Assembly: GCA_934183165.1 (NCBI GenBank)
Contig: CAKPRZ010000001.1
Coordinates: 54,820-118,819, forward strand
DNA from: an uncultured Bacilli bacterium
GTDB taxonomy: Bacteria > Bacillota_I > Bacilli_A > RF39 > UBA660
Reading direction: 5' to 3'
DNA: 64,000 nt
Of the stretch, positions 7,581 through 57,835 are shown piece by piece. The notes under the pieces were generated by a model. That model worked only from the letters and a program-made list of their open reading frames with translations. It searched no databases and was not told the origin of the DNA. A program made the translations under genes and the position numbers. Each line of letters starts with the position of its first letter. The stretch's first letter is position 1.

Positions 7581-9170
7581 ATGATTGAATACGATGTTGT
7601 AAACGTACCAATTGTTGATATTGTTAACCAAATTATTTTATATGCGTCAAAGAATCGTGCCAGTGATATTCACATGGACCCTAAAGAGGATTCATTGTTA
7701 ATTAGGATGCGAATTGATGGTGAATTAAAAAATCATACAGTTATTCCTAAAGCATATGAAAGAAATTTAATTACTAGGGTTAAACTAATTTCTAATATGA
7801 ATATTACTGAAACCAGATTACCTCAAGATGGTGCCATCAAAGGTAGAATTGAAGGTAGAGATTTAGATATGCGTGTTTCAGTACTACCTACAAACGAAGG
7901 CGAAAAAGTAGTTATTCGTATTCTTGATTATTCAAAAAGTTTAAGTGGAATTGAATCACTTGGCTTTTCAGAAAAAAACCTAACATTACTTAAAAAAATG
8001 TTAAGTGTACCAAATGGAATTATTTTAGTAACAGGTGCTACTGGATCTGGTAAAAGTACTACTACCTACTCCATGTTACAAGAGTTAAACAAAGAAAACG
8101 TTAATATAATAACAGTCGAAGATCCAATTGAAATGAATATTGAAGGTATCAACCAAGTACAAGTTAATAGTGAAATTGGTCTTACGTTCGCGGCTGTTTT
8201 AAGATCTATTTTAAGACAAGATCCTAATATAATATTAATAGGAGAAATTCGTGATTCTGAAACTGCGCAAATCGCAGTACGTGCATCAATAACTGGTCAC
8301 TTAGTTTTATCTACACTACATACAAATAATTCTTTAAGTACAATTGAAAGACTTTTAGATATGGATGTTGAAAGATATTTACTATCAAGTGCCTTAACCG
8401 GTATTATTTCACAGAAATTAGCGCGTAAGTTATGTCCACATTGCAGAATTCAAAGAGCTGCTACCGAGTATGAGAAAGAAGTATTTAAACTTGTACTAAA
8501 TAGAGATATTGATACAGTTTTTGATGCTGGGAAATGTGATAAATGTACAGATGGGTATTATGGAAGAATTGCAATTGAAGAAGTTTTGTATATTAATGAT
8601 GAATTAAGAAGTGTAATTGCTAATCCAAATACAACAAAAGATGAATTAAAGAAGCTTGTTTATACTAAAGATGTTACTACTCTTCTTGGAGATGGATTAG
8701 AAAAAATAATAAATGGTTATACTACATTTAATGAAATATTCAAATTAATTGAAGTCGACCTAGAGATGAAATCTCTTAGAGAAGCTGCTCAAAATAACAA
8801 TATTATAGAATCTAAAGAAGTAGCTAAGCAAGCACCAACTGAACCAGAAATAATTATTGAAGAACCACAATCAATTAAAAAGCAGGAAGTAAAGATGGAA
8901 CCTCAAGTTGATAGTAGGATTATGCCAAGTCTTGCACCAAACATGAATCCAACTTTTAACCCTAATCCAGGCCCTCCTGTATTAGAACCAAATATTAATA
9001 CTAATATACCTCAAAACAACGTCATTGATATTAATCCTAGTTATAACATTAACACTGTTCAACCAGACAAAATAACGTACAATCCTGTTGATGAATATTT
9101 TAGAGGTGAAAATGTTAAACCTATTGTAGATATATATGATTTAGATAGTGGTGATAAAAGTAACTATTAA
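7581..9170 (+). CDS. Type II secretion/type IV pilus assembly ATPase (GspE/PilB/ComGA family) with a ~130-aa Pro/Asn-rich C-terminal extension.
   Basis: Walker A LVTGATGSGKSTTTY, Asp box TVEDPIE, His box, and a tetracysteine motif (CPHC...CDKC). Divergently oriented from the pilin genes. SD AAAGGGG lies upstream. Confidence 0.85.
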   Translation: MIEYDVVNVPIVDIVNQIILYASKNRASDIHMDPKEDSLLIRMRIDGELKNHTVIPKAYERNLITRVKLISNMNITETRLPQDGAIKGRIEGRDLDMRVSVLPTNEGEKVVIRILDYSKSLSGIESLGFSEKNLTLLKKMLSVPNGIILVTGATGSGKSTTTYSMLQELNKENVNIITVEDPIEMNIEGINQVQVNSEIGLTFAAVLRSILRQDPNIILIGEIRDSETAQIAVRASITGHLVLSTLHTNNSLSTIERLLDMDVERYLLSSALTGIISQKLARKLCPHCRIQRAATEYEKEVFKLVLNRDIDTVFDAGKCDKCTDGYYGRIAIEEVLYINDELRSVIANPNTTKDELKKLVYTKDVTTLLGDGLEKIINGYTTFNEIFKLIEVDLEMKSLREAAQNNNIIESKEVAKQAPTEPEIIIEEPQSIKKQEVKMEPQVDSRIMPSLAPNMNPTFNPNPGPPVLEPNINTNIPQNNVIDINPSYNINTVQPDKITYNPVDEYFRGENVKPIVDIYDLDSGDKSNY

Positions 9171-9223
9171 AAGAGTTATGATTTTATGTTATTATAAATA
9201 TACATAACATGAGGTGATAAATA

Positions 9224-9709
9224 ATGACAGCTAAAAACGACTTAATGAAACTCAAAAATAAATTGATTGAAAAAGAAACATCAAGTAATGATTTATCAAA
9301 ATATGATGAATATCTATCTAAAGCAAGTGAAATTGGTAAAATCATTGTCAATAAATGCTTAGCTCAAGATATTTACATAAACACTCAAAAATTACAAAAA
9401 CTATTAGTACTTGTACAAATAGAATGCATAAAAGATAGTGGATTCCCCCTATTTTCACAAAACATAGAATATTGGGAATGTGGTGTTGCGATTAAAGAAG
9501 TGGACAAGGAATTTAGACAATATGCATTGGGATTTAATAAATATTTAAATGAGAAAATTGTGTTACTATATTCAGAAATGCAATATATTGATAATATTAT
9601 AAATCAATACGCTTCTCTTACACCGTATGATTTAAATGAATTATGTTTATTGAATAAAGATATTCTAATTCCATTTGCTAGTAAACAAAAATGTAAAATT
9701 TATAAATAA
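9224..9709 (+). CDS. Hypothetical cytoplasmic protein (161 aa) downstream of the pilus ATPase.
   Basis: Intact ORF with SD AGGTGA. No TM or known motif recognised. Confidence 0.45.
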   Translation: MTAKNDLMKLKNKLIEKETSSNDLSKYDEYLSKASEIGKIIVNKCLAQDIYINTQKLQKLLVLVQIECIKDSGFPLFSQNIEYWECGVAIKEVDKEFRQYALGFNKYLNEKIVLLYSEMQYIDNIINQYASLTPYDLNELCLLNKDILIPFASKQKCKIYK

Positions 9710-16365: not shown

Positions 16366-18894
16366 TTATTTTCTTAAAACAGGTCCTTCGTATTCTTGCT
16401 CTTGTGCTTCAAATAATTCTTTTAACGCTTCTTTTGCAAGTTCTTCATAATAACTTGTATTTACATGTGGTGTTGCATATGATTCTGATTGAGAATTAAC
16501 ACCGGATCTAGTTTCATATCCATCATAATTTTCATCATATATATCATCGCCAAAATCAGAGTCTTCTGGTCCAGCTAAATTTGGATCATCAATAACATTA
16601 TCAGATGGCTTTTCTGATTCTATTGGTGTATCATCTTTAAAATCATTTTTATTGTCGTTATTATTATTGTTGTTATTATTATTGTTGTTATTATTATTGT
16701 TGCTATTATTGTTATTACTATTGTTATTTTTATTATTATTTTTGCTTTCTGCTTGTTTTTGAGCTTCTTTATATAAGTCTTCTGCTTCTTTTCTAGTAAT
16801 AGCACCTTGACTAACTGCTGAATTTAACTTTTGATTAATACCATTTAGCCATCCACTCTTGTATGCTTCAGCCATTTCTCCAGTATAACCTCTTTTTGAT
16901 AAATCTTTCGAAAGTCTTGCTTGAATTTGAGAATCTGAAGATGTAATTCTTTCATTATTAAATGCATATGCTGCTTGAGCTATATCAGATAAAGTACCTT
17001 GTGTTGGAACCTTACTAACTGCATTTGGATTAATTCTATTATATATATCAGCATGACTATATGCACCTTTTTCTTCTGCATAATTAGTTGCATCTGTCCA
17101 TCCAGCCTTAGCTGCAGTCGCTTTATCTCCTTTGTAGGTATTCTTATCTATTTGAACTTCATTAAAATCCTTTTCTTGTTTTTCTGCTTCTTTTCTTTCG
17201 CTTGGAGTTAAATCAGATTTATTAACTTTCTTAGAAGTTGTTGTTGTTGTATTACTGATAACCTTACCGTTTTTCTTTGCAAAATCAAGCTTTTGCTCAG
17301 CACTCATCTTGTCCCATTCATCTTTTGAAACGGAAGTGCCAGTATATGTTTCTATTTTTTCTACTCCTCTAATTCTATTGTTATATAAGATATCATCTTT
17401 AACTTCAATATAAGGTCCAAGTTCTCTATCAGCAGCATTTTTAACTTGATTATATACAGGAACATTATTTTCTTTATTTTCTAATTCTACATACTCTTCA
17501 TATGTCATTTGCCCTGATAGTATCTTTTCTGATGATTTTACATCTTTTTTATCTAAAGCTGTTGATGCTAGTGCAACCTTAGTAACCATTTGTTGATTAG
17601 CTAATGGAGTAATTATATCAGAAGATATATGTTCTCTCATGGCTGCTATTGTACAACTACCTTTCTCGGCAGTGTCTAACATATCTTTTAATTTTTCACC
17701 ACTTTGAATTTGTGATGCTTTATTATCACGATACTCTTCATCTAAAGTACCAGGTTCTGAAGTTACTTTTAAATAATGACTGTATTTTTCTTCAACATTG
17801 GCATCATAATAACCTCTAACCATATTTAACATTAAATGTTTAACATATTTTTCAGTAGATTTATCCATTTTTGAATCATTGGCACCATTAATACCATGAA
17901 TATAAGAGTATCCAAATGTTCTAATTAATCTATCAGCAGCATCAGTAGTTTGATTTTTATTAAATTCTACTAACTTGCCTTCCAAATCTTCAAACCAAGT
18001 TCTGTTTTCTTTGTCTGTTATCAATGTAGAAACAGTGCTAGGCGCTTTTCCATTCATAGCATACAAACTCATTTTAGATACAAAGTTGTAATAATTTTCT
18101 TCAATAGCCTGTGCATCTAATTCTTGAAGCCCAAAGATTGAGAATAATTCTTCACCACTATAGTTATTTAATACTAACATAGCTGACGATACTTCATCAT
18201 AAGTAAATTGTAATACTGCATTATCCTTTTTATCTGCTTCTAATGCAAATACAGATTCATCTTTTGCCAACTTATTCAATTGTTCTGTAACATCATATGC
18301 AGTTTGTGAGAACTTTCTTAATTCACTATCTTCAGGTAAAGCTTTCATAAGTTCATCAAATGATGCTGTATTAAAATCTATGTTTTTATTTGTTGACTTT
18401 CCATTACGTTTAGAACATTGTGAAAGCGTTACAGCTAATGCACCGGTTACACCAGCTACAGCTGCTGTAGTAACTGCAATTGTTTTAATAGTTTTTCTCT
18501 TATTTTTATCTTTACGTATAGAATTAATGTCTTCATCATCTTTTTCTTCTTCATCATCAAATGTTGGTTCAGTATCAGGAGAAATATCAGCTATTGAATC
18601 AATATCCGAAGGGAATTTTACAATTAAACTATCCCTAGTAAATTCTGTTTCTAAATTTTCTGCTTCTTTACTGTTTTCAGGAACAATCTCTAAATGTCCC
18701 ATTGCTATTAACTGATTTAAGAAATCAGGAGATGAAGTATCAAGACCAAATTCATTTGCAAAATCTATAATCATTTGATCATGGACTTTAAAGTCATATG
18801 GTACCTTTTTTAGACCATCATCAGTATGAACATATGCATATTTTGGATTATTAGATTCATTATTTACAATTGAAATTTTATTTATTTTATCCAT
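16366..18894 (-). CDS. Large membrane protein (842 aa): ~135-aa cytoplasmic N-domain, one TM, ~700-aa extracytoplasmic region with a poly-Asn tract and an acidic C-terminus.
   Basis: TM IKTIAVTTAAVAGVTGALAVTL. Low-complexity NNNKNNNSNNNNSNNNNNNNNNNNNNNNDNKND. No known catalytic motif. Confidence 0.65.
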   Translation of the reverse strand: MDKINKISIVNNESNNPKYAYVHTDDGLKKVPYDFKVHDQMIIDFANEFGLDTSSPDFLNQLIAMGHLEIVPENSKEAENLETEFTRDSLIVKFPSDIDSIADISPDTEPTFDDEEEKDDEDINSIRKDKNKRKTIKTIAVTTAAVAGVTGALAVTLSQCSKRNGKSTNKNIDFNTASFDELMKALPEDSELRKFSQTAYDVTEQLNKLAKDESVFALEADKKDNAVLQFTYDEVSSAMLVLNNYSGEELFSIFGLQELDAQAIEENYYNFVSKMSLYAMNGKAPSTVSTLITDKENRTWFEDLEGKLVEFNKNQTTDAADRLIRTFGYSYIHGINGANDSKMDKSTEKYVKHLMLNMVRGYYDANVEEKYSHYLKVTSEPGTLDEEYRDNKASQIQSGEKLKDMLDTAEKGSCTIAAMREHISSDIITPLANQQMVTKVALASTALDKKDVKSSEKILSGQMTYEEYVELENKENNVPVYNQVKNAADRELGPYIEVKDDILYNNRIRGVEKIETYTGTSVSKDEWDKMSAEQKLDFAKKNGKVISNTTTTTSKKVNKSDLTPSERKEAEKQEKDFNEVQIDKNTYKGDKATAAKAGWTDATNYAEEKGAYSHADIYNRINPNAVSKVPTQGTLSDIAQAAYAFNNERITSSDSQIQARLSKDLSKRGYTGEMAEAYKSGWLNGINQKLNSAVSQGAITRKEAEDLYKEAQKQAESKNNNKNNNSNNNNSNNNNNNNNNNNNNNNDNKNDFKDDTPIESEKPSDNVIDDPNLAGPEDSDFGDDIYDENYDGYETRSGVNSQSESYATPHVNTSYYEELAKEALKELFEAQEQEYEGPVLRK
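16652..16742. repeat. Coding trinucleotide (AAT/AAC)n-type microsatellite (~90 nt) encoding the poly-Asn tract.
   Basis: gttattattattgttgttattattattgttgttattattattgttgctattattgttattactattgttatt (plus strand). Confidence 0.8.
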
Positions 18895-18911: not shown

Positions 18912-21239
18912 CTAACCTTTTACTCTTTTATTACCAGTCATTTTATATCCTTGGCTTATTAATGAAGAATCATTTTGAATTGTACTCCATTTTGTAGATG
19001 AGCCAGCTTTCTTAATTAATGTACGAGTTTTATATCTATAACTATATACATCTTTGAATTTCTCTTTTCTTGTTTCCTCATAACCGATTACCTTAGTATA
19101 AGTACTGAATGAATATGTTTTCTTTGTTTCATATCCAGTACATGTTACTTTAACACCTGTTGATAAAGTAATTGTATCAGTAGCAGTTACAGTACCAGCA
19201 GTTCTTGTATATACTTTAAATAATTTATAAGGAGTTGAATTACATTCGCTACCACATGCATTCCAATTCATTCCTGCATATACGTATTTAGTAGTTAAAG
19301 TGTCAGCTGGTTTTTCTTTTTTAGATATAGTTTTTAAATATGTCCATCCATCGTTAGATCCAACCTTAACAGCATATGTAATATTTTTGTTTGTTGTTGT
19401 ACGATAATAATTATATCCTTTACATACTTTTTCTGTTAATGATGCTGATTCTTTTATAACAGTACCATAAATTGGAGCCCCAACATTATATTCATATCCA
19501 TCGGATACTTGTTTCTTTCCTAAATCTTCTGTTATTTTAGTATCTGTTTTTCCAAACTTAGGTGGATTTGATGGATTATATGTTTTTGTTGTCCATCCAC
19601 TCCAATTACTATATTCATTATCCCAAGTTTTTAAATACTCATATTCATAAGTTATATCTTTTTTAATTACTTTAATACTACATACATTTGTATTTCCAGC
19701 ATTATCTTTTACATATCCATAGATTGTATGAGTTCCATTTGCAGTAATCTTGTATGTTGCATTATTTTTATATGTAGTTGATTTTCCAAGTCCAAACGAA
19801 TTCATTCCACTTGTTGCATCATATTTTGACTTAAAGCCAATTACTACATTACTTGTATAATGTCCATCATTATATGTACCCCTTTGAACATCCAAACTAC
19901 AATTTGGCTTTGTAGCATCTCTCTTTACTGAAATACTACATACTGCTGTATTTCCTTTCGAATCTTTTACATATCCATATACATTTTTTGATCCGTCTTG
20001 ACTTATTGTATAAGTATTTTTACCATTATAATTTGTACTAGTACCTATTCCATAAGCTGTTATCCTAGCTCCATTTGTTGTTTTCTTAGAAGCAAAGCTA
20101 ATTCCAACATTACTTACATACCAGTTATTATCACCTTTTTTACCTGATGATATTGTTAAACTACAAGATGGTTCAGAGTATTTACTTGGCTCTGTTTTTT
20201 CTTTAGTAACACTTAAGTCACATACAGCTTTATTACCAGCTCTATCTATAACATAACCATACACTTTTGTTGTTCCATTTTTAGTTACTACATAACTTGT
20301 TGATTTGTTATAAAGTGGTTTTGTTGCTGTTGTTACTCCATAATTTGAAATACCACTAGTTGCATCAACTCTACTATTAAATCCAACTTTTACATTTGAT
20401 ATATAATTGCCATTTGAATTCTTAGTTCCTGATAATACAGCTAAGCTACAACTTGGTTTTTTAGTATCTCTTTTAACTGCAACACTACATACAGCTGTTT
20501 TTCCTTTTGAATCTTTTACATATCCATATACTTTTGTCGTTCCATCAGATGTAACTTTGTAACTTGTTTTTCCATTATAATTTTTACTAGTACCTATTCC
20601 ATAAGATGTTATCTTGGCACCTTTTGTTGTTGATTTTGATTTAAATCTTACTGTTACATCACCAACATACCAACCATTTTCTCCACGTTTACCATCACTA
20701 ATTTCTAGAACACATGAAGGTCCTCCTGATGAAGTTGGTTTTGGTGTTGGATTTGATTTTCCACCACCTGTACCTTTTGAAGGTGTAGTTGGTTCTTCTT
20801 CTTTTTCACAAATTGCTGACTCACAATATGAATAGCATCCTAAGTGTACTATAATGTAATCTTCCTCTTCACTACATTTTAAATACACTTTCATCTCATA
20901 TTCATTTTCCATTTTAGTTAGTTTTACATATGAGTTTCTTGTATCACATGATTTACCATTTTTATCTTTAAATGGTAAAAGTAATTTCATATCAAGCATT
21001 TCTTGCAATGTTAAAGTAACAGAATCTCCCACATTCTGTGGTAACCTTTCTGTTGTAAAATAGCTTATTGCAGCATCTTTCATTTCTCCAACATTAGCAC
21101 TAAATATTTTACTATTTAAACCCGTTAAATCTGGTATTGGTAATAACCATACCAATAATAATACAAAGACAATTATTAAAATTAATTTTAATAAGAATTC
21201 CTTTAAAGGAAAGCTTCTTCTTTCTTCTTCTTCGTACAT
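18912..21239 (-). CDS. Large membrane-anchored cell-surface protein (775 aa) with four tandem ~90-aa Ig-like repeats.
   Basis: N-terminal TM (LILIIVFVLLLVWLL), a Pro/Thr/Gly linker, and repeats of the form PSC(V/S)L.IS.GK.G.N.WY...V...F.SK.TT.GA.IT.YGIGTS.NYNGK..Y........VYGYVKD..G..AVCS..V. Confidence 0.7.
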   Translation of the reverse strand: MYEEEERRSFPLKEFLLKLILIIVFVLLLVWLLPIPDLTGLNSKIFSANVGEMKDAAISYFTTERLPQNVGDSVTLTLQEMLDMKLLLPFKDKNGKSCDTRNSYVKLTKMENEYEMKVYLKCSEEEDYIIVHLGCYSYCESAICEKEEEPTTPSKGTGGGKSNPTPKPTSSGGPSCVLEISDGKRGENGWYVGDVTVRFKSKSTTKGAKITSYGIGTSKNYNGKTSYKVTSDGTTKVYGYVKDSKGKTAVCSVAVKRDTKKPSCSLAVLSGTKNSNGNYISNVKVGFNSRVDATSGISNYGVTTATKPLYNKSTSYVVTKNGTTKVYGYVIDRAGNKAVCDLSVTKEKTEPSKYSEPSCSLTISSGKKGDNNWYVSNVGISFASKKTTNGARITAYGIGTSTNYNGKNTYTISQDGSKNVYGYVKDSKGNTAVCSISVKRDATKPNCSLDVQRGTYNDGHYTSNVVIGFKSKYDATSGMNSFGLGKSTTYKNNATYKITANGTHTIYGYVKDNAGNTNVCSIKVIKKDITYEYEYLKTWDNEYSNWSGWTTKTYNPSNPPKFGKTDTKITEDLGKKQVSDGYEYNVGAPIYGTVIKESASLTEKVCKGYNYYRTTTNKNITYAVKVGSNDGWTYLKTISKKEKPADTLTTKYVYAGMNWNACGSECNSTPYKLFKVYTRTAGTVTATDTITLSTGVKVTCTGYETKKTYSFSTYTKVIGYEETRKEKFKDVYSYRYKTRTLIKKAGSSTKWSTIQNDSSLISQGYKMTGNKRVKG
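19607..20717. repeat. Four tandem ~280-bp intragenic direct repeats encoding the Ig-like modules (approximate bounds).
   Basis: The repeated protein modules derive from nucleotide-level repeats (e.g. recurring ...ccatatac...ttgtaccat... blocks). Confidence 0.55.
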
Positions 21240-40253: not shown

Positions 40254-41336
40254 TTATTTATTCTCAGTACAATTAATTGTTTCTGTTTTTACACATTTAC
40301 CATCTTTTTCTTTATATCCACTTGGACATGATTTTGATTTTTTTGTAGTAGATGTTGGAACACACCACATAAAAGCTCCACCCATACCATCTTCTTCAGT
40401 ATACATGTAATCAGATTTGTTTTGGCATTTCCAATTTCCATAATCGTTAGTAGCATGATATTTTTTACTATAATTCAAACATTTGCCATTTTTTAAGGTT
40501 AATCCACTTGAACATGTATTACGTGTAGTTAAATCAGTTGTAATATTTTTGGTACAAGTTTTATTATCACTACTTGGAGTACAATCTTTTGGACATACAT
40601 ACAAATCCTTCCAAATTGCAATAATTGTTACATTGCTATCTATTTTTGTATCTTTTGTTATAGTTGTACCATCACTTAATTTCCATCCACCAAAGATATA
40701 TCCTTTTTTCGTTGGATTTTGAGGCAACTTTATTTTATCACCCTTAGCAATAATAATATTATCAATAATATTTCCACCATCACTGTTAACAGTTATCGTA
40801 ATTTTTTCATCTTTCTGTGATATCCATCTTGGCTTTATAATCATTCCACTGTTGACTACATTATTACCATCAATTACCTCACCACCATCCAAAATCCAAC
40901 CAGCGAACACATATCCGCTCTTTGTAGGCGGAGAAATAAATTGTATTTTTTCTCCATCTATTTCATTTACATCAAGCTTTTTACCATTATCTAAAACAAA
41001 TGTTACATTAACTATAGTTTTTGTCTTATCTAACCATATTGCTTTTAGTTTAATATCGTTAGTTATAATCAAATCATCAGTCGCAATACTACCATCAGTT
41101 AGTTCAAAGCCTCCAAAAACATAACCATCTTTAACTGGATCTTTAGGTAATTTTAACTTACTATTCTCCGCCACCTCAAGATCACTTATACTACTACCGC
41201 CAACAGTATCAAAGCTAACTATATATTTTTTAGAATTATTCTTAAAATTTAAACCTAGCAACAATCCTATTATTAATAGTAAAAATAGAATTAATATCAA
41301 AAGCCATTTTTTCTTTTTTTTCTTACTTTCTTCCAT
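40254..41336 (-). CDS. Membrane-anchored surface protein with three Listeria-Bacteroides-type (Flg_new) repeats and a Cys-rich C-terminal domain.
   Basis: Repeats GYVFGGFELTDGS...IW, GYVFAGWILDGGE...RW, GYIFGGWKLSDGT...IW. N-terminal TM. C-terminal region with ~14 Cys. Confidence 0.7.
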   Translation of the reverse strand: MEESKKKKKKWLLILILFLLLIIGLLLGLNFKNNSKKYIVSFDTVGGSSISDLEVAENSKLKLPKDPVKDGYVFGGFELTDGSIATDDLIITNDIKLKAIWLDKTKTIVNVTFVLDNGKKLDVNEIDGEKIQFISPPTKSGYVFAGWILDGGEVIDGNNVVNSGMIIKPRWISQKDEKITITVNSDGGNIIDNIIIAKGDKIKLPQNPTKKGYIFGGWKLSDGTTITKDTKIDSNVTIIAIWKDLYVCPKDCTPSSDNKTCTKNITTDLTTRNTCSSGLTLKNGKCLNYSKKYHATNDYGNWKCQNKSDYMYTEEDGMGGAFMWCVPTSTTKKSKSCPSGYKEKDGKCVKTETINCTENK

Positions 41337-41347
41337 CGATATACCTC

Positions 41348-41713
41348 CTACCTATTATTATTATTATTGTTATTATTGTTGTTGTTATTTGATGATCCAC
41401 CACTAAATGAACTGCCACTATAACTACCACCAGATGATTCATAATGTGGAAGGATTCTAAATTCTTTGTTACTCATAATAACTCCATCTACACTACTATC
41501 AGTACACCTTGAATTTATAATAACAGCATTTGATGTATCCCTATTTACAACAAGAGAAAGATTTGAAGCTCCTATTACTTGTCCTGTTGGATTATCAACT
41601 AGAAACTTATATATTTGTTCTAAATCAGCCATAGATAATTCATAGTATTTAGTCAAATCAATACATCTTTTTTTTCTTATTAACTCTTCATATGTTTCGG
41701 GATCTTTATTCAT
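41348..41713 (-). CDS. Small protein (121 aa) with a conserved N-domain, a Gly/Ser/aromatic-rich tail and a poly-Asn C-terminus. Paralog of 47470..47868.
   Basis: TYEELIRKKRCIDLTKYYE... N-domain. Tail SSGGSYSGSSFSGGSSNNNNNNNNNNNNNR. Confidence 0.6.
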   Translation of the reverse strand: MNKDPETYEELIRKKRCIDLTKYYELSMADLEQIYKFLVDNPTGQVIGASNLSLVVNRDTSNAVIINSRCTDSSVDGVIMSNKEFRILPHYESSGGSYSGSSFSGGSSNNNNNNNNNNNNR

Positions 41714-46428: not shown

Positions 46429-47454
46429 TTAAGAATCACTATTATTAATCATGATCCATTCTTGTAAGTATTTAATTGGTTTTCTACAATAACTACAAGA
46501 ATCCTTTGTGACATCTATTAAACCTCCACAATTATGACATTTGATCATATTTATACCATCATGAACCTCAATTGTTCCTTTTTCATGTCTTTCTAAAACA
46601 TATTTATCGTCACAATACTTAGATACAATTTTATTGTTTTTATAATAAACGATTCTTACTTCAGCTGTAACTTCAACAACTAATTTATTATTAACAGTTG
46701 ATTCCTTGAAGTCAATGTAATCAAGTACATCATAATCAATAATATCGTCCTGTTTATAATACTTTTTTCTTACTTCATAATTTAAATTATTAAAGAATAC
46801 TTTTTTATCTATTTCAGTCCTATTCCAAAATTCTATTTGTTTTTGATTTTGAGCATCTTTATATGCTTTTATAGGTCCTAAAATAATATAGGCATCCAAG
46901 ATGTAAAAGAAATAATATAGAATCAAAGATAAAATTCCACCATAAATAAATATTTTAGCTATATCATATTCATTAAATGTTCTAGATGTAGTACTTATAA
47001 AAATATATGTTAAAAATAAACTAACAATTAAATCAATAAATGCTGTAATAATTCTATAACTAGTATTTCTTAAAACCCTATCGTAATGATATTTACTACC
47101 TAAATCTTTATCAGTATAATCTATATTATATTTTGATCTACAATATGGACATCCATCTATAAAATTTTTTACTTTCCCGGGCATGCCACAATTTGGACAA
47201 GAAAAATCTTTATTTTCTTCTTCTTTAGATATAAAAGTATATTCTATTCTAGTATCAAATAATTTTTCTGTTTTTAAAAGTTTATTACCTATATAATAAT
47301 CCTTTTCACATCTTACACCATTTTTTATATCATCATTTACTATTCCATTAGTATTTCTTTCTAATATATTATTACCAACAATATACTTCGTTTTAATATT
47401 TATATTATATTTTTTTAATTTTTTATCATGAAAAGTATCCGAAACTAACGACAC
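46429..47454 (-). CDS. Membrane protein with two zinc-ribbon motifs and two TM helices (341 aa).
   Basis: CPNCG...CPYC (N-terminal region) and CHNCGG...CSYC (C-terminus). Two hydrophobic helices at ~aa 140-200. Confidence 0.6.
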   Translation of the reverse strand: MSLVSDTFHDKKLKKYNINIKTKYIVGNNILERNTNGIVNDDIKNGVRCEKDYYIGNKLLKTEKLFDTRIEYTFISKEEENKDFSCPNCGMPGKVKNFIDGCPYCRSKYNIDYTDKDLGSKYHYDRVLRNTSYRIITAFIDLIVSLFLTYIFISTTSRTFNEYDIAKIFIYGGILSLILYYFFYILDAYIILGPIKAYKDAQNQKQIEFWNRTEIDKKVFFNNLNYEVRKKYYKQDDIIDYDVLDYIDFKESTVNNKLVVEVTAEVRIVYYKNNKIVSKYCDDKYVLERHEKGTIEVHDGINMIKCHNCGGLIDVTKDSCSYCRKPIKYLQEWIMINNSDS

Positions 47455-47469
47455 AAAACCACTTCCTTT

Positions 47470-47868
47470 TTATCTATTATTATTGTTATTAGATGATCCG
47501 CCACTAAAAGAACTACCGCCAAAAAAACTACCACCAAACGATCCACCATAAAATGATGATCCACCTGAATAGGATGATCCTGAATAAGCCTTTGGTACAT
47601 AATGAGGAATAATTCTAAATTCAGTATTACTCACAATAACACCATCAATTTTTGAATCTTTTTTTCTAGCCATAATAACCGACTTAACATCATTATCAAT
47701 GATAAGTGATAGTTTAAGAAAATAACCTACAATTACTCCATTAACATTATTAGCTAGAAAATTATAAACTTCTTTCAAATCGTTATCATTAATTTCATAA
47801 TATTTAGTTAAATCAAAGCATCTTTTATTTCTAATAATTTCTGCATATGTTTGAGCATCATCTTTCAT
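47470..47868 (-). CDS. Small protein (132 aa) with a conserved N-domain, a Gly/Ser/Tyr/Phe repeat tail and poly-Asn. Immediately downstream of, and overlapping, the rSAM gene.
   Basis: TYAEIIRNKRCFDLTKYYE... N-domain. Tail AYSGSSYSGGSSFYGGSFGGSFFGGSSFSGGSSNNNNNR. The start overlaps the rSAM stop by 11 nt. Confidence 0.6.
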   Translation of the reverse strand: MKDDAQTYAEIIRNKRCFDLTKYYEINDNDLKEVYNFLANNVNGVIVGYFLKLSLIIDNDVKSVIMARKKDSKIDGVIVSNTEFRIIPHYVPKAYSGSSYSGGSSFYGGSFGGSFFGGSSFSGGSSNNNNNR

Positions 47869-49609
47869 TTTTTCCCTCCAAATTTAAATAATAAAATTCA
47901 ATATTTTGAAATGGTAAATTTATAGCTTGAATATGATAATAAGCATTATTTTTTTGTTTTAGGTAATGATAATCCCTTAAAGCTGATGTCGTAAAGAAAA
48001 TATTATTAGAATTATCGATAGAATATTGACTATGGTACTCTTTAATTAAATTAGTTATATCATATTCATAGTAATATTCATTATTTGTATTAACACTATC
48101 TAAAACTCCTTTGTAAATTTGATGAGTTACAACATGTCGCTGTTTTGTTCTTTCTTCATCACCATAAGTAACTAAATTCCCACTAAGAATCATAATGTAT
48201 AAAGAATTATTTTCAGGATAATCACATTCTTCTTTAATTAAATTCTTTTTCATACAAATAACAATCTTACTTTGAGGCGTTATGTATATAATTTCTCTTG
48301 ATTTCTTTATTATTTGAGAAGAAAGCGGATATTTGATATCATCAACCTTTAATATAAAAGAATTATCATCATATATATATTTAAGTCTAGGATCACTATC
48401 AATAATGTCTTCTAATAAGGGATATGGACTATTAGTATCTTTTTTTATATATTTAGTAGCGTCTCCTATTCTCATTTTGGTTGCATATTGATATGTGAAT
48501 TCATTAAATTTATCTTCTAAATAGTTTCTATCTTTATACATTTGTTTTTGTAAAAGACAAGTATAACTTTTGTTTTGATTATATGTATTTTTTACAAATG
48601 GGCATCCTGTTTTGCATAAATATAAATAACTACAGTTAGCGCAATCCTCATTAAATGGTAGTTTATTATGATTGATAAAAATCTTCTTATAAGCTTCTTT
48701 TAATATATCATCAACCGTATTTGTATAAATATTTCCATAGTAATAATCAGGATTTTTTTGTCCTCTTACACAAGAATAAATATCTCCATTTCTTTCTAGT
48801 AAAAAGAATTTTTCACCACAATTGTCACAATTAGAGCAATAATCCGGTCCAAATTCATCAAACCATGCACCATTAACTCCACTATCTAAATCAGTCCCAT
48901 CAAATTCTTGATGCATTTTTATGTAGAAATCGACTTGTTCTTCTTCTGCTAAATGATGTAATAATCCATTTGAATTATAATCAAAACCTATCATAAAGTT
49001 AAAATCATTCATATCTAAACATGTATTTTTATTTAAAAATTTTATATCTTCAATAATCTCATCTATGTGTGAATAATGTTCTTTGAATATGGTAGATGAA
49101 ACTTTCTTCTTGTTTGGAATATTTTCTAATAGCTTTATATTATCTAAGATTCTTTCCAATGTCTTAGCTCCACCTTTAGTAACTCTGTATTCATTATGAA
49201 GCGATAAAGGTAAATCAAGACTTCCCGATATTGAAACATTAAATTCTTTAATAGTATCAATATGTTTTTCTATATCAAATAAATTTGTCTTTATATGTGG
49301 ATTACCGATTTTAAAGCCACCTTCATTTATAACTTGTTGATTTTCTTTATAATAATCACTTATAAATTTTATAACGTCATGAAAATCATCTTTACTTAAT
49401 GTTGTAACTTCTCCTCCATGAAGTGAAATATTAAATGGTATAACATTATTCTCTTTAAATTTTGAAATAGCATATTCTAATGTATCTAATGGTTTATATT
49501 TAGTTTTTAATTCTTTTGTATTATCCTCTAAATAGCAATATTTACATCCCATATTACATGCCATTGTTGGAACATACAATAAATGAATATATTTATAATT
49601 TTTTTCCAT
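47858..49609 (-). CDS. Radical SAM / SPASM-domain enzyme with a ~230-aa C-terminal extension (583 aa).
   Basis: CNMGCKYC (Cx3Cx2C) at aa 18-25. SPASM-type clusters CSNCDNCG ... C...CANCSYLYLCKTGCP...C. Confidence 0.85.
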   Translation of the reverse strand: MEKNYKYIHLLYVPTMACNMGCKYCYLEDNTKELKTKYKPLDTLEYAISKFKENNVIPFNISLHGGEVTTLSKDDFHDVIKFISDYYKENQQVINEGGFKIGNPHIKTNLFDIEKHIDTIKEFNVSISGSLDLPLSLHNEYRVTKGGAKTLERILDNIKLLENIPNKKKVSSTIFKEHYSHIDEIIEDIKFLNKNTCLDMNDFNFMIGFDYNSNGLLHHLAEEEQVDFYIKMHQEFDGTDLDSGVNGAWFDEFGPDYCSNCDNCGEKFFLLERNGDIYSCVRGQKNPDYYYGNIYTNTVDDILKEAYKKIFINHNKLPFNEDCANCSYLYLCKTGCPFVKNTYNQNKSYTCLLQKQMYKDRNYLEDKFNEFTYQYATKMRIGDATKYIKKDTNSPYPLLEDIIDSDPRLKYIYDDNSFILKVDDIKYPLSSQIIKKSREIIYITPQSKIVICMKKNLIKEECDYPENNSLYIMILSGNLVTYGDEERTKQRHVVTHQIYKGVLDSVNTNNEYYYEYDITNLIKEYHSQYSIDNSNNIFFTTSALRDYHYLKQKNNAYYHIQAINLPFQNIEFYYLNLEGKNER

Positions 49610-49618
49610 ATTATCCCC

Positions 49619-50611
49619 CTATTTATTGAAATATACAATTGTTGTTGGGCTTTCCTTAAAAGCGTTCTCATTAATATATACATCAAATGGAATTCTTATT
49701 TCATACAAATTATCACATTTTCTAAATGCTGATGACCCGATAGTTTGTAGATTCGAATCAGGACCAATTTCAACTAATTCTAAAGATTTATTCTTATAAA
49801 ATGCACGTCCTCCTATTCTAACTACACTATCAGGAATAGTAATACTTTGTAGTGAAGTGCATCCTTCAAAAGTACTTCCTTTTATTTCTCTAAGACTCTT
49901 AGGTAATTTAATACTACCTAGACGAACATCATTTTTAAATGTTTCACCTCTTATTTCTGTAATTGTATCCGGTAAAGTTACTTCTTTTAAAAATCTCATG
50001 TTAGAAAATGTATTACCTCTTAAACTTACTATATTTTTTCCTTTATAAGTAGCTGGAATTGTTGCAGTTTTAAAATTAGTAATTCCCGATATGTAGAACC
50101 TAACACCATATCCACCTTCCATTTTCTCATACAATATTATTGGTTTATAAAAAATTACTAAAGCAATAAAAACAGAAATCAAATTTATAATTATGAATCT
50201 TAATGAAGTATTATCCTTAGTTATAGATAGTTTACAATTCATAATAATATTAGAAATCTTTTCATTTGGTCTTGACATAATTTCTTTTTTTAAATATTTA
50301 ATCAAATCATATTTTGTATAATAATTAAGAAAAAAAAGTAAAATTATTATTCCTATCACATAAGAATAAGTTGGAAAATGAAAGAAAATCATTGCAATAA
50401 AAACAAATAAAAGTAATGCAAAAATGCTAGCCAATATTGTTTTTCTCTTTAACAATTCCGATGTTATTCCCGGATTATTAATATCCCACTCTATATTTTT
50501 CATTTCCCTTTTAATAAATTCTTCTATTAATTTGTCTTCATCATTCTCATATATTGGATCGACATTATTAGAAATTACTTTGACATTATCATCTAAACTT
50601 TCATTATTCAT
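49619..50611 (-). CDS. Membrane protein with a C-terminal BspA-type leucine-rich-repeat domain (330 aa).
   Basis: Three hydrophobic helices, then LRR_5-like repeats (LKEVTLPDTITEIRGETFKN / LGSIKLPKSLREIKGSTFEGC / LQSITIPDSVVRIGGRAFYKN). Confidence 0.65.
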   Translation of the reverse strand: MNNESLDDNVKVISNNVDPIYENDEDKLIEEFIKREMKNIEWDINNPGITSELLKRKTILASIFALLLFVFIAMIFFHFPTYSYVIGIIILLFFLNYYTKYDLIKYLKKEIMSRPNEKISNIIMNCKLSITKDNTSLRFIIINLISVFIALVIFYKPIILYEKMEGGYGVRFYISGITNFKTATIPATYKGKNIVSLRGNTFSNMRFLKEVTLPDTITEIRGETFKNDVRLGSIKLPKSLREIKGSTFEGCTSLQSITIPDSVVRIGGRAFYKNKSLELVEIGPDSNLQTIGSSAFRKCDNLYEIRIPFDVYINENAFKESPTTIVYFNK

Positions 50612-50726
50612 AACACAATACCCAACTTAATACCTTTCTACTTATATAAACATTATAACATATCAGCAATAGTTTTTCGACAATATATTATGTTTACTAA
50701 CATTTTATTTTTGAATAAAAACAATT

Positions 50727-51656
50727 TCATTTTCTAAAAAGAATTGTTATCCTAGCTAAAATATATGTAAAGGTATCATTTAAATAATTTTCTACATTCG
50801 TATTAAATTCAAGTTGCTCCTTTAAGCTAATAAAAGCATTTTTTATTTTATTGTCATAAAATCCTTTATCAAAATCATTATGTAATGTATCAATATCAAT
50901 ATCAATATTGGAAACCTTCAAGCTAAATATATCTTGATTTGAATATTTTAATAGTAAAGAAACTAAAAATACTTCTTCAAAGATATTAATTGATAAATCA
51001 GTACTATTGTTATATAAGTCTTTTAATAAAGCATTAATATTTAGAGCATTAAATCTTTTACAAAATATATTTTCAAAATTAATATAATTTAAATAGTTAC
51101 TGATAAGTTCTATGCCAATGTAATTACCTTTTTTCTTTAAAGGCATATAATCAAGAGTAATTTTAATGTCTTCTGGATTATTCATCTTATATACTTTAAA
51201 AAAAGCTTCCATTCCATCTTTTAATGTAGAATTATAAAAATAATTATTTACTTTTATAAGATTATGTTTAAAAACAGTTTCATAAAAAAACTTAGTTTTA
51301 CTAAATAATTCACCTATATATTTCAAACTCAATTGATATAAATTAGTGATATTTTCTTTTAAAAGAATTTCTATTATTTCATAAGAAGAATATTTTTTCA
51401 AATAAACTCCCATTGTCCATATCATGGATTTATAAATAACTTCTACTTCTTTCACAGGAATAGTATTTATTTTGTTTTTAAATTGCTCTTTTAATTGGTC
51501 TTTTAAAGCATTAAACATTTTATAATTAATTACCACGAATTCTTCTTTTGATATAATTTGATATTGAAAAAAGCAATTTATTATTTGTTCTAAATAATAA
51601 TTATTCTTTTCAATTTTAGGAATTTTAGGAACAATACTATTCATAAAATTTATCAC
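50727..51656 (-). CDS. Hypothetical cytoplasmic protein (309 aa).
   Basis: Intact ORF. Overlaps the upstream 142-aa gene by 20 nt. Confidence 0.5.
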   Translation of the reverse strand: MINFMNSIVPKIPKIEKNNYYLEQIINCFFQYQIISKEEFVVINYKMFNALKDQLKEQFKNKINTIPVKEVEVIYKSMIWTMGVYLKKYSSYEIIEILLKENITNLYQLSLKYIGELFSKTKFFYETVFKHNLIKVNNYFYNSTLKDGMEAFFKVYKMNNPEDIKITLDYMPLKKKGNYIGIELISNYLNYINFENIFCKRFNALNINALLKDLYNNSTDLSINIFEEVFLVSLLLKYSNQDIFSLKVSNIDIDIDTLHNDFDKGFYDNKIKNAFISLKEQLEFNTNVENYLNDTFTYILARITILFRK

Positions 51657-52065
51657 TTTCTAATTTATTTTTTAATTCATTCAAGCAAAAATCCTGTAGT
51701 ATTTCAATAGATCCTTCACAAACTCCATCAAAACTATTTTTAATATAATCAATAATCTCATCATCGTTTAAAAAGTTATCAAATTCTGATTGATATAAAT
51801 AAAAGGTTTCTATCAAGGCATTGACTATCTCATAATAATTATCACAATCAATAAAAGAAGATTCATAAAAGTTTTGAATCAAATAATTTACATTATTATA
51901 TATTTCAAATCTATTTAATTGCTTTAATAAAAGATTTTTATTTTCAATTAGTTGTATAGCTTGTTTCTTTGTTAATACCAAATTTCTTTCAGAGGTAATA
52001 TCATTAACACTAAGAACTTTTTTTATCTCTAAATCTAGATTCATATTATCAATTGATTTTATCAT
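51637..52065 (-). CDS. Hypothetical acidic cytoplasmic protein (142 aa).
   Basis: SD GAAGGGAGAA upstream. Lies downstream of the sigma gene terminator. Confidence 0.5.
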   Translation of the reverse strand: MIKSIDNMNLDLEIKKVLSVNDITSERNLVLTKKQAIQLIENKNLLLKQLNRFEIYNNVNYLIQNFYESSFIDCDNYYEIVNALIETFYLYQSEFDNFLNDDEIIDYIKNSFDGVCEGSIEILQDFCLNELKNKLESDKFYE

Positions 52066-52157
52066 GTATTTTCTCCCTTCGTTATTCTTAATATAATAAT
52101 TTCATTCAAAATACAAGTCTTGTAAACTAATTAAAATTATGTTAATGTGATAATAAG

Positions 52158-52188
52158 AAAACCAGTAATTTTAACATTTACTGGTTTA
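52158..52188 (-). terminator. Rho-independent terminator of the sigma-factor gene (accagtaa-N9-ttactggt plus T-rich run on minus). It overlaps the stop codon.
   Basis: Read from sequence. Confidence 0.45.
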
Positions 52189-53344
52189 TTTTTATATCAG
52201 TACTTTTTAAATACTTCTTCAATTTTTTTAAAGCTTTTTGTTCAGAATTTCTTACCCATTCGTGAGAACAACCCATTTTTTTAGAAATACTACGATATGA
52301 TAGTTGTTCATATCCATTGAATCCAAAACGATAATTTATTATTTCTCTTTCATTATAGGGAAGTTTGTCTACAATAAAATCTATTTGATCTAAAAAAATA
52401 TTCTTAGTTGCTTCCTCTTCAACATCATCATCGGAAGGTACAATTTCATGATATGATGTATCATCATCCAGTTTAATAGATGAATCAAGCCTGATTGGGG
52501 TAATTGAAATTAAATAAGACTCATAAAATTTATATTCCTTACTAGACAAATTAAACCTAGTCATAATTTCATTTGGTGTTAATTTTCTACAAAGCTCTTG
52601 TTCTAAGTCTTCAACTTGTTTTCTTATACTATTATATTTTAAATATGCCACCATATTTTTCTTTTTTGTTTTTTCATACACAGTGACTCTTCTTAATTCT
52701 CTTACAATACCTGTAGTCGCATATGTAGAAAAACGACAATTAAAATCTTTACTATAACCATCTACAGCTTTTAATAAAACGATATTTCCTTCACCTATCA
52801 AATCTAAAATATCTACTGTACTAATACTAGCATACTTCTTCGCTAAAGATACAACTAATCTTAAATTAGAATTAACCATATTATTAAAGGCATTTTTATA
52901 TACTAAATAATTTTTTACTTGACTTAAAATCTCTTTGTCGTCTAGTTGATTAGCTAAATCACTATCAACATCAAAGTCATTTTTCAAAGTTTCTATATCA
53001 GGCGCTTTGCTGTTTTTCTTACAATAATTCTGGTATTTAACAAGTTGTTCTAAATTTTTTTTATCTAAAGACATATTACTATTTTTATAAAAATCTATTA
53101 ATAATGAAATTACATCTGAATATACTGAGGAATTTACTAAATATAAAAATAATTTTTGTAAATCGATTCCTCTTATTTGAGTAGATCCAACTTTTATATT
53201 TTTTATAAAGGAAATGTTATCAACAAGCCCTAATTCATCAGTCAATTGCTTCTCTTCATCTTCATTCAATAAAGGATAATCTTCAATTTCTTTTAAATAA
53301 AGATGTAATGCATCAATATTTTCATAATCATTATTTTTTGACAT
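52178..53344 (-). CDS. Divergent sigma-70 family sigma factor (388 aa) with a non-canonical region 2.4.
   Basis: Region 1.2-like LHLYLKEIEDYPLL. Region 2 NLRLVVSLAKKY...LIGEGNIVLLKAVDGY...FSTYATTGIVRELRRV. Region 4 LSYRSISKKMGCSHEWVRNSEQKALKKL. Confidence 0.75.
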   Translation of the reverse strand: MSKNNDYENIDALHLYLKEIEDYPLLNEDEEKQLTDELGLVDNISFIKNIKVGSTQIRGIDLQKLFLYLVNSSVYSDVISLLIDFYKNSNMSLDKKNLEQLVKYQNYCKKNSKAPDIETLKNDFDVDSDLANQLDDKEILSQVKNYLVYKNAFNNMVNSNLRLVVSLAKKYASISTVDILDLIGEGNIVLLKAVDGYSKDFNCRFSTYATTGIVRELRRVTVYEKTKKKNMVAYLKYNSIRKQVEDLEQELCRKLTPNEIMTRFNLSSKEYKFYESYLISITPIRLDSSIKLDDDTSYHEIVPSDDDVEEEATKNIFLDQIDFIVDKLPYNEREIINYRFGFNGYEQLSYRSISKKMGCSHEWVRNSEQKALKKLKKYLKSTDIKINQ

Positions 53345-53423
53345 AAAAAGCCACTCCTTTTATAGCCTAATATTATAACATAATTTTATTAAATATAAAG
53401 AAAAAGAAGAAATTAAATTCCCT

Positions 53424-57678: not shown

Positions 57679-57700
57679 ACTCAAGCCATATGACTTGAGT
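57679..57700 (-). terminator. Terminator hairpin downstream of tRNA-Ala (actcaag-N8-cttgagt plus T-run on minus).
   Basis: Read from sequence. Confidence 0.45.
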
Positions 57701-57711
57701 AACTTTCATTA

Positions 57712-57787
57712 TGGTGGAGCATAGCGGGATCGAACCGCTGACCTCCACGGTGCAAACGTGGCGCTCTCCCAGCTGAGCTAATGCCCC
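57712..57787 (-). tRNA. tRNA-Ala (anticodon UGC), CCA-encoded.
   Basis: The minus-strand sequence is GGGGCATTAGCTCAGCTGGGAGAGCGCCACGTTTGCACCGTGGAGGTCAGCGGTTCGATCCCGCTATGCTCCACCA. It has the G3:U70 Ala identity pair, an anticodon loop TT-TGC-AC, and a T-arm GGTTCGATCC. Confidence 0.9.
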
Positions 57788-57806
57788 AAAACAACTCAGT
57801 GAATTA

Positions 57807-57835
57807 ATAATATCACTTAGTTATTTTATTGTCAA
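57807..57835 (-). promoter_or_regulatory. Near-consensus sigma-A promoter for tRNA-Ala (TTGACA -17- TATTAT).
   Basis: -35 TTGACA at 57830..57835 and -10 TATTAT at 57807..57812 (minus-strand reading), ~19 nt upstream of the tRNA 5' end. Confidence 0.5.

Follow-up and report, generated by a model that had tools for sequence, protein, structure and literature searches.

A sigma-70-family protein with group-2-like architecture, a folded insertion and altered promoter-reading residues in an uncultured low-GC Bacilli bacterium

Introduction

Group 2 sigma factors of the sigma-70 family are defined by the presence of regions 1.2, 2, 3 and 4 and the absence of sigma 1.1, and some primary sigma factors have regions 1.2 and 2.1 separated by a non-conserved region (NCR) (Paget 2015, PMC4598750). 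Here we provide a sequence and structure-based analysis of a gene encoding a 388-amino acid (aa) sigma-70-family protein, referred to as window sigma, which is located at positions 52178-53344 of a 64,000-nucleotide stretch of DNA (the window; contig CAKPRZ010000001.1, positions 54,820 to 118,819) from an uncultured Bacilli bacterium. We hold it to be reasonably probable that window sigma is a functional alternative sigma factor of group-2-like architecture carrying a lineage-specific folded insertion, that it belongs to an unnamed subfamily of low-GC gut and rumen bacteria, and that its regulon is not the radical SAM cassette encoded nearby.

The group 2 factors, i.e. E. coli RpoS, Streptomyces HrdA-D and cyanobacterial SigB-E, have the same architecture as window sigma, and they presumably share with it being non-essential and acting alongside a primary sigma factor, the coexistence being deduced here from promoter content. 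In contrast to window sigma, group 2 factors read promoters close to the consensus, and their DNA-reading residues are nearly the same as those of group 1. Window sigma lacks these residues, it shows about 30% identity to SigA over regions 2-4, which falls short of the closeness of group 2 to group 1, and it reaches 121 bits against the RpoS model with a cutoff of 379. We therefore classify window sigma as group 2-type by its architecture as read from the translated gene, and not by its recognition residues.

The best sequence and fold matches of window sigma are the group 1 factors RpoD/SigA, and its insertion is found at the same site as the NCR of Thermus SigA and E. coli sigma-70. With the group 3 factors SigB, SigF and SigG it has the pattern FSTYA-x-x-x-I-x-x-E-[IL]-R-R in common, the tryptophan pair of region 2.4 being present in neither; for this comparison we take the SigF/SigG sequence of region 2.4 to be FSTYAVPMIIGEIRRY, set against FSTYATTGIVRELRRV of window sigma. 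Window sigma differs from these by having region 1.2 and the insertion and by being nearer to RpoD overall, and it scores 74.7 bits against the SigBFG model TIGR02980 with a cutoff of 234.35. Window sigma was not assigned to MzaA, the sigma factor of about 700 aa of the MZA anti-phage system, the NCBIfam score being 105 bits versus a cutoff of 800 and the PADLOC match covering the sigma domains only.

Results and discussion

The sigma gene is intact and under purifying selection

The gene and the regions of its product are the following:

52178..53344, minus strand: coding sequence of the 388-aa sigma-70-family protein (open reading frame translation; identical to database protein P0121)
53243..53314, minus strand: region 1.2, aa 11-34, DALHLYLKEIEDYPLLNEDEEKQL (Pfam PF00140, translation and alignment)
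52895..53239, minus strand: aa 36-150, the insertion (NCR) that separates region 1.2 from region 2.1 and defines the sigma subfamily
52691..52879, minus strand: region 2, aa 156-218, with core-binding residues and FSTYA kept (Pfam PF04542, family conservation)
52685..52732, minus strand: region 2.3/2.4 string FSTYATTGIVRELRRV (exact encoding and alignment; same in 14 strain variants)
52412..52633, minus strand: region 3, aa 238-311, weakly recognisable (Pfam PF04539 below cutoff; alignment)
52214..52369, minus strand: region 4, aa 326-377, with the recognition helix CSHEWVRNSEQKALKKL (Pfam PF04545)

A preliminary description of this DNA, made from the letters alone, had assigned the sigma-70 regions 1.2, 2.1-2.3 and 4 to its 388-aa product, and translation and Pfam searches confirm this. 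Regions 2 and 4 are found with E-values of 2e-10 (Sigma70_r2) and 1.2e-10 (Sigma70_r4), region 1.2 is barely above threshold (23.5 bits versus a cutoff of 22) and region 3 is below it (19.1 versus 25.3 bits). The protein passes the sigma-70 superfamily model TIGR02937 with 94.1 bits at a cutoff of 42.9. Two further features go beyond the preliminary description. Region 1.1 was not found, the protein starting 10 aa before region 1.2 and giving no match to PF03979. Regions 1.2 and 2.1 are separated by an insertion of roughly 100 aa, for which a fold of a beta-hairpin and four helices is predicted. The AlphaFold2 model has a mean predicted local distance difference test score (pLDDT) of 90.4, regions 2 and 4 being modelled with high confidence.

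The gene resides in DNA of 25% GC among ordinary chromosomal genes (thrS, lepA, a hemW-like gene, thyA, folA, tmk, bipA and a tRNA gene), and identical or near-identical sigma genes are present on contigs of up to 289 kb, nearly all of those listed coming from Hadza human gut metagenomes. In a set of 14 full-length strain variants, 0-17 positions are different from window sigma, none of these within aa 205-220; there is hardly any variation in regions 2.4 and 4.2 across strains. The ratio of non-synonymous to synonymous polymorphism (pN/pS) is 0.10 in comparison to strain L096 (37.5 synonymous and 16.5 non-synonymous changes) and 0.25 in comparison to strain L098, similar to most neighbouring genes showing values of 0.02-0.22 and one showing 0.46. 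The low pN/pS together with the unchanged region 2.4 in the strain variants shows that the gene is functional and constrained: it is a real gene under purifying selection and not a chance reading frame.

Residues reading the -10 and -35 elements are replaced

We aligned window sigma to canonical RpoD/SigA sequences and give residue positions in E. coli sigma-70 numbering, which we applied from established knowledge. The preliminary description had claimed that region 2.4 is rewired and that the recognition helix of region 4.2 is divergent, and both hold in this alignment. In region 2.4, which is encoded exactly as FSTYATTGIVRELRRV, the changes are W433T, W434G, R436V, Q437R and T440R. In region 3.0, RTIRIPVH is replaced by K-KKNMVAY with loss of H455 and E458, the residues that contact the TG of the extended -10 element. 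The canonical recognition helix VTRERIRQIEAKA reads CSHEWVRNSEQKA in window sigma, corresponding to the exchanges R584H, R586W and Q589N with E585 and R588 being retained. Accordingly, the invariant group 1 DNA-reading set is not kept, NMVAY standing for RIPVH and SHEWVRN for TRERIRQ. Replacements are thus present at the residues which, according to the alignment, read the -12 position, the TG of the extended -10 and a part of the -35 element. The arginines at positions 437 and 440 suggest that -10 elements with G at their upstream edge are preferred.

These replacements might also be explained by window sigma being sigma-like but having lost promoter recognition, either as a core-binding competitor or decoy modulating SigA or as a paralogue that slowly decays. 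The exchange of nine residues (W433, W434, Q437, T440, H455, E458, R584, R586 and Q589) and the fact that no candidate promoter motif was found fit this explanation. We regard it as quite unlikely, as purifying selection acts over the whole gene, regions 2.4 and 4.2 hardly vary between strains, FSTYA, E585 and R588 are retained and the model is of high confidence in regions 2 and 4; moreover, it is established knowledge that SigB, SigF and SigG are also devoid of the tryptophan pair and show the same E-[IL]-R-R pattern.

The insertion defines a small sigma subfamily

An exhaustive search among 1.84 billion proteins with a profile of the insertion only gave 75 cluster representatives, 48 of these at E<=1e-10, with the same-species representative P0001 (two substitutions from window sigma) scoring E 1.7e-48. 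The members are mostly 360-445 aa long with an insertion of approximately 95-115 aa, and they are rare, with one to few members per cluster found mostly on short gut and rumen metagenome contigs. By a word-indexed similarity search, the sole full-length relatives recovered were P0002 and P0003, which are 34% and 31% identical and both contain the insertion; this search missed most of the subfamily, the size of which rests on the exhaustive profile search. A homology search with the insertion profile likewise gave no match, its word filter being unsuited to this subfamily. Through its insertion, window sigma belongs to this small subfamily, which occurs in gut and rumen bacteria of low GC and had not been named before.

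Within the subfamily the core-binding residues N160, L161, V164, G186, L190 and A193 and the FSTYA motif are near-invariant. The promoter-reading positions vary: of 53 members, 22 have W at position 433, 11 have Y and 20 another residue; W is found at position 434 in 41 members and Q at position 437 in 34, and the residues at position 440 are scattered. The motifs of regions 3.0 and 4.2 range from canonical (P0002, P0141, P0142 and P0210) to unrecognisable. Window sigma is the most extreme member and the sole one with G at position 434. Since alternative sigma factors with an altered region 2.4 are common, a single such gene is unsurprising; the new part is an RpoD-derived family that combines a conserved insertion lacking structural matches with promoter-reading residues of unusual variability, and that has to date been seen solely in uncultured gut and rumen bacteria of low GC. 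The subfamily constitutes a natural series for studying the rewiring of -10/-35 specificity on a group 1/2 scaffold.

The genomic contexts of the relatives comprise ftsW-sigma-clpB, murG-murB-ftsQ-sigK-sigma, sigma-glyS and two stand-alone positions. The proximity of ftsW, murG-murB-ftsQ and sigK weakly suggests a role in cell envelope, division or sporulation. The gene of the subfamily member P0150 has a canonical promoter, TTGACA-17-TATAAT, and other subfamily sigma genes likewise have canonical promoters. A phage origin of the insertion-bearing sigma factors was rejected, a scan of viral contigs returning only sigma factors of 41-55% GC that are devoid of the insertion, and the matches in PHROGs and PADLOC being generic sigma matches only.

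SigK-like and SigE-like sporulation sigma factors are encoded at L101:9001-9705, a subfamily-sigma locus, and at L162:3150-3875, a locus of the radical SAM cassette described below; one of the two lies directly after ftsQ beside a subfamily sigma. Endospore formation is probable for the lineage.

Canonical promoters point to a separate housekeeping sigma factor

Among the transcription units of the window carrying promoters of the type read by SigA are the following:

53372..53399, minus strand: TTTATA-16-TGtTATAAT, the promoter located 28 nt 5' of the ATG of the sigma gene (SigA-type, canonical)
57712..57835, minus strand: tRNA-Ala(UGC) gene with the near-perfect promoter TTGACA-17-TGnTATTAT (57679-57835 including the terminator)

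TGnTATAAT is about six-fold enriched in the non-coding DNA of the window. In the 6,559 nt of non-coding DNA, TGNTATAAT is present 11 times compared to 1.8 +/- 1.3 times in dinucleotide shuffles (maximum of 6 in 300), and the coding DNA contains it about as often as expected (14 versus 13). Ten of the 11 non-coding sites are in the sense direction of the gene and 9 of 11 lie 3-156 nt 5' of a start codon. As TGnTATAAT/TTGACA promoters need residues that are absent from window sigma, a canonical SigA must operate in the organism; from this promoter content we infer it to be encoded elsewhere in the genome, and it probably transcribes the window sigma gene itself.

The proposal that window sigma is instead the highly divergent housekeeping sigma factor of the organism can refer to the retained region 1.2 and to RpoD/SigA being the best database matches. 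It is hardly conceivable in view of the canonical -35 and extended -10 promoters being enriched and placed in front of the tRNA gene and of the sigma gene. In addition, region 1.1 is missing, the identity to SigA is low as given above and the scores are far below the cutoffs of the RpoD models: 126.8 bits versus 354 (TIGR02393), 113.6 versus 572 (NF006666) and 137.1 versus 384.5 (TIGR02997). Linkage to dnaG is also missing, the gene not being among the called neighbours of eight subfamily members including window sigma, where one contig (L100) is short with its neighbours being unannotated. The absence of region 1.1, the RpoD scores, the lack of a dnaG neighbour and the canonical promoters support the assignment of window sigma as an alternative factor, as the preliminary description had proposed.

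Two other candidates for the housekeeping sigma factor of this host, P0004 and L028, were discarded as originating from other organisms of 30% and 34% GC. P0004 is a tandem sigA paralogue of a low-GC bacterium in the order glyS-dnaG-P0004-sigA-trmK (L094); it is SigA-derived and its region 2.4 is changed from WW to YW. It differs from window sigma by keeping region 1.1, by its position in the dnaG operon and by not having the subfamily insertion: against the hidden Markov model of the insertion it scores 34 bits, equal to the adjacent canonical SigA, which itself has no insertion. This locus (L094:2761-9063) contains, with glyS-dnaG and trmK, two tandem full-length SigA genes, the second copy being fully canonical; it is a recent sigA duplication.

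The adjacent block largely carries canonical promoters

Downstream of the sigma gene the following features are found:

52149..52187, minus strand: weak intrinsic terminator, a 10-bp hairpin over the sigma stop codon followed by the U-rich tail UUUUCUUAUU (folding)
50727..52065, minus strand: DUF6323 (142 aa) and DUF6179 (309 aa) genes, overlapping, directly downstream of sigma (Pfam)
50652..50680, minus strand: cassette promoter TCGAAA-17-TGtTATAAT (canonical)
46429..50611, minus strand: four-gene cassette encoding an LRR_5 protein, a radical SAM/SPASM enzyme, a small protein of 132 aa and a Zn-ribbon protein

The preliminary description had assigned the sigma gene its own terminator, followed by two genes of 142 and 309 aa and the radical SAM operon, and this arrangement is as described. 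The terminator is weak, with a folding free energy (dG) of -9.8 kcal/mol (z -3.15, 0 of 200 shuffles being as stable), and it is kept in other strains. The two genes correspond to DUF6323 and DUF6179, followed by the LRR_5 and radical SAM/SPASM genes.

It had further been suggested that window sigma is dedicated to this block and drives it from non-canonical promoters. This was not substantiated. The starts at 50.6, 46.2 and 41.7 kb have canonical or extended -10 promoters; the element TGTGATATGAT, which the latter two starts have in common, is an extended -10 element (TGaTATGAT), and the search for a non-canonical motif shared upstream of all three operons yielded nothing beyond it. Neighbourhood promoters being all canonical had been named beforehand as the finding that would speak against such a role, and this is largely what we observe, with the exception of DUF6323. 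Of the neighbouring units, only for the DUF6323-DUF6179 pair was no canonical promoter recognised. A candidate upstream of DUF6323, TTTACA-N17-GAAATT, occurs once in the window and also in 24 of 100 shuffles, not being significant.

The idea of window sigma as a dedicated regulator of the DUF6323-DUF6179 pair and/or of the cassette draws on the sigma gene lying directly upstream on the same strand, on the missing canonical promoter of DUF6323 and on a second case of linkage. P0149, a subfamily sigma 31% identical to window sigma, is encoded directly downstream of the same cassette in two unrelated assemblies, one of them a rumen contig. Its cassette proteins share 43-71% identity with their window counterparts, and the genes on the flanks are different (ftsW and murG). 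With P0149 on the other side of the cassette and within different flanks, the adjacency has survived a rearrangement. Sigma and cassette are adjacent in 2 of 7 informative subfamily contexts, in different arrangements, which exceeds chance placement and could still be due to shared ancestry, giving a weak hint.

Several observations make this dedicated role unlikely. The cassette has the canonical TGtTATAAT, and TGnTATAAT is kept 5' of the LRR gene in 49 of 64 related cassette loci, that of P0149 included. A metagenome scan using the radical SAM protein gave at least 389 confirmed matches, of which the best 80 (67-77% identity) were surveyed, and no insertion-subfamily sigma was found within 10 kb of the cassette in these best 80 loci. 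Conversely, the five other informative subfamily contexts do not contain the cassette. In strain L098 (SRR29134006; L098:5557-6161 corresponding to 50727-52065 of the window) indels disrupt the DUF6323 region, in which no gene is called, and DUF6179 is deleted, whereas sigma and LRR on the two flanks are intact and the sigma gene is constrained.

DUF6323 and DUF6179 were also considered as anti-sigma partners and rejected, both being absent from all other subfamily contexts and dispensable in strain L098. A homology search with DUF6323 returned the same species only, and no mention of DUF6323/DUF6179 was found in the literature.

A model for window sigma

The explanation we favour is that of an alternative sigma factor with altered promoter specificity. 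A separate canonical SigA would transcribe the sigma gene, and window sigma would then compete for core RNA polymerase and direct it to promoters with -10 and -35 elements differing from TTGACA/TATAAT. The regulon would not be the LRR-radical SAM operon and would probably be located elsewhere in the genome.

Some points weigh against this explanation. No target promoter of window sigma was identified, DNA binding being predicted from its sequence, and the strains are more than 95% identical in intergenic DNA, giving no power for promoter footprinting. The canonical SigA is deduced from the promoters of the window. The loss of W433, W434, H455 and E458 could mean that promoter recognition is lost altogether, and the link to envelope, division or sporulation comes from the neighbourhoods of only three or four distant relatives.

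A broader reading, which we put forward tentatively and consider doubtful as a whole, would unite the above: the insertion-bearing sigma factors would be an undescribed, rapidly diversifying group-2-like family of probably spore-forming low-GC gut and rumen Bacillota, in which the scaffold, i.e. core binding, FSTYA and the fold of the insertion, is fixed and regions 2.4, 3.0 and 4.2 are repeatedly rewired. Window sigma, as the extreme case, may then read a -10 element starting with G instead of T, e.g. the GAAATT found 17 nt downstream of TTTACA upstream of DUF6323, and may be functionally tied to the LRR-radical SAM cassette.

The LRR-radical SAM cassette and other features of the window

The four genes of the cassette form a unit that is widespread and strictly conserved, and the cassette may be a more rewarding target than the sigma factor. 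It is intact in nearly all of the best 80 loci that are long enough to show it, these loci originating from human gut and rumen and being mostly of 22-31% GC with an additional subgroup of 41-49% GC. The radical SAM/SPASM enzyme has a C-terminal extension of about 220 aa and the fourth gene encodes a double Zn-ribbon protein; no curated family names the cassette. The window contains a 121-aa open reading frame at 41348-41713 (minus strand) encoding a 49% identical paralogue of the 132-aa protein of the cassette, and the gene following it (40254-41336) is unrelated to the cassette Zn-ribbon protein.

Directly or one gene upstream of the cassette on two other contigs, giant proteins are encoded which each contain a complete sigma-70 (regions 1.2-4), L117:3018-8171 (1717 aa) and L120:2775-5360 (861 aa). 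The sigma-70 part is N-terminal in the former and follows after about 200 aa in the latter, and both proteins have long C-terminal extensions without confident domain assignment.

The terminator-like hairpin following the tRNA-Ala(UGC) gene is called on both strands and is common to a convergent methyltransferase gene. Downstream of lepA, two adjacent open reading frames of 842 and 775 aa (16366-18894 and 18912-21239, minus strand) have no Pfam match. At 7581-9709 (plus strand) lies a gene for a secretion ATPase of type II/IV (T2SSE, E 7e-121), followed by an antitoxin-like gene with a SocA/Panacea domain, both on the strand opposite to almost all other genes of the window.

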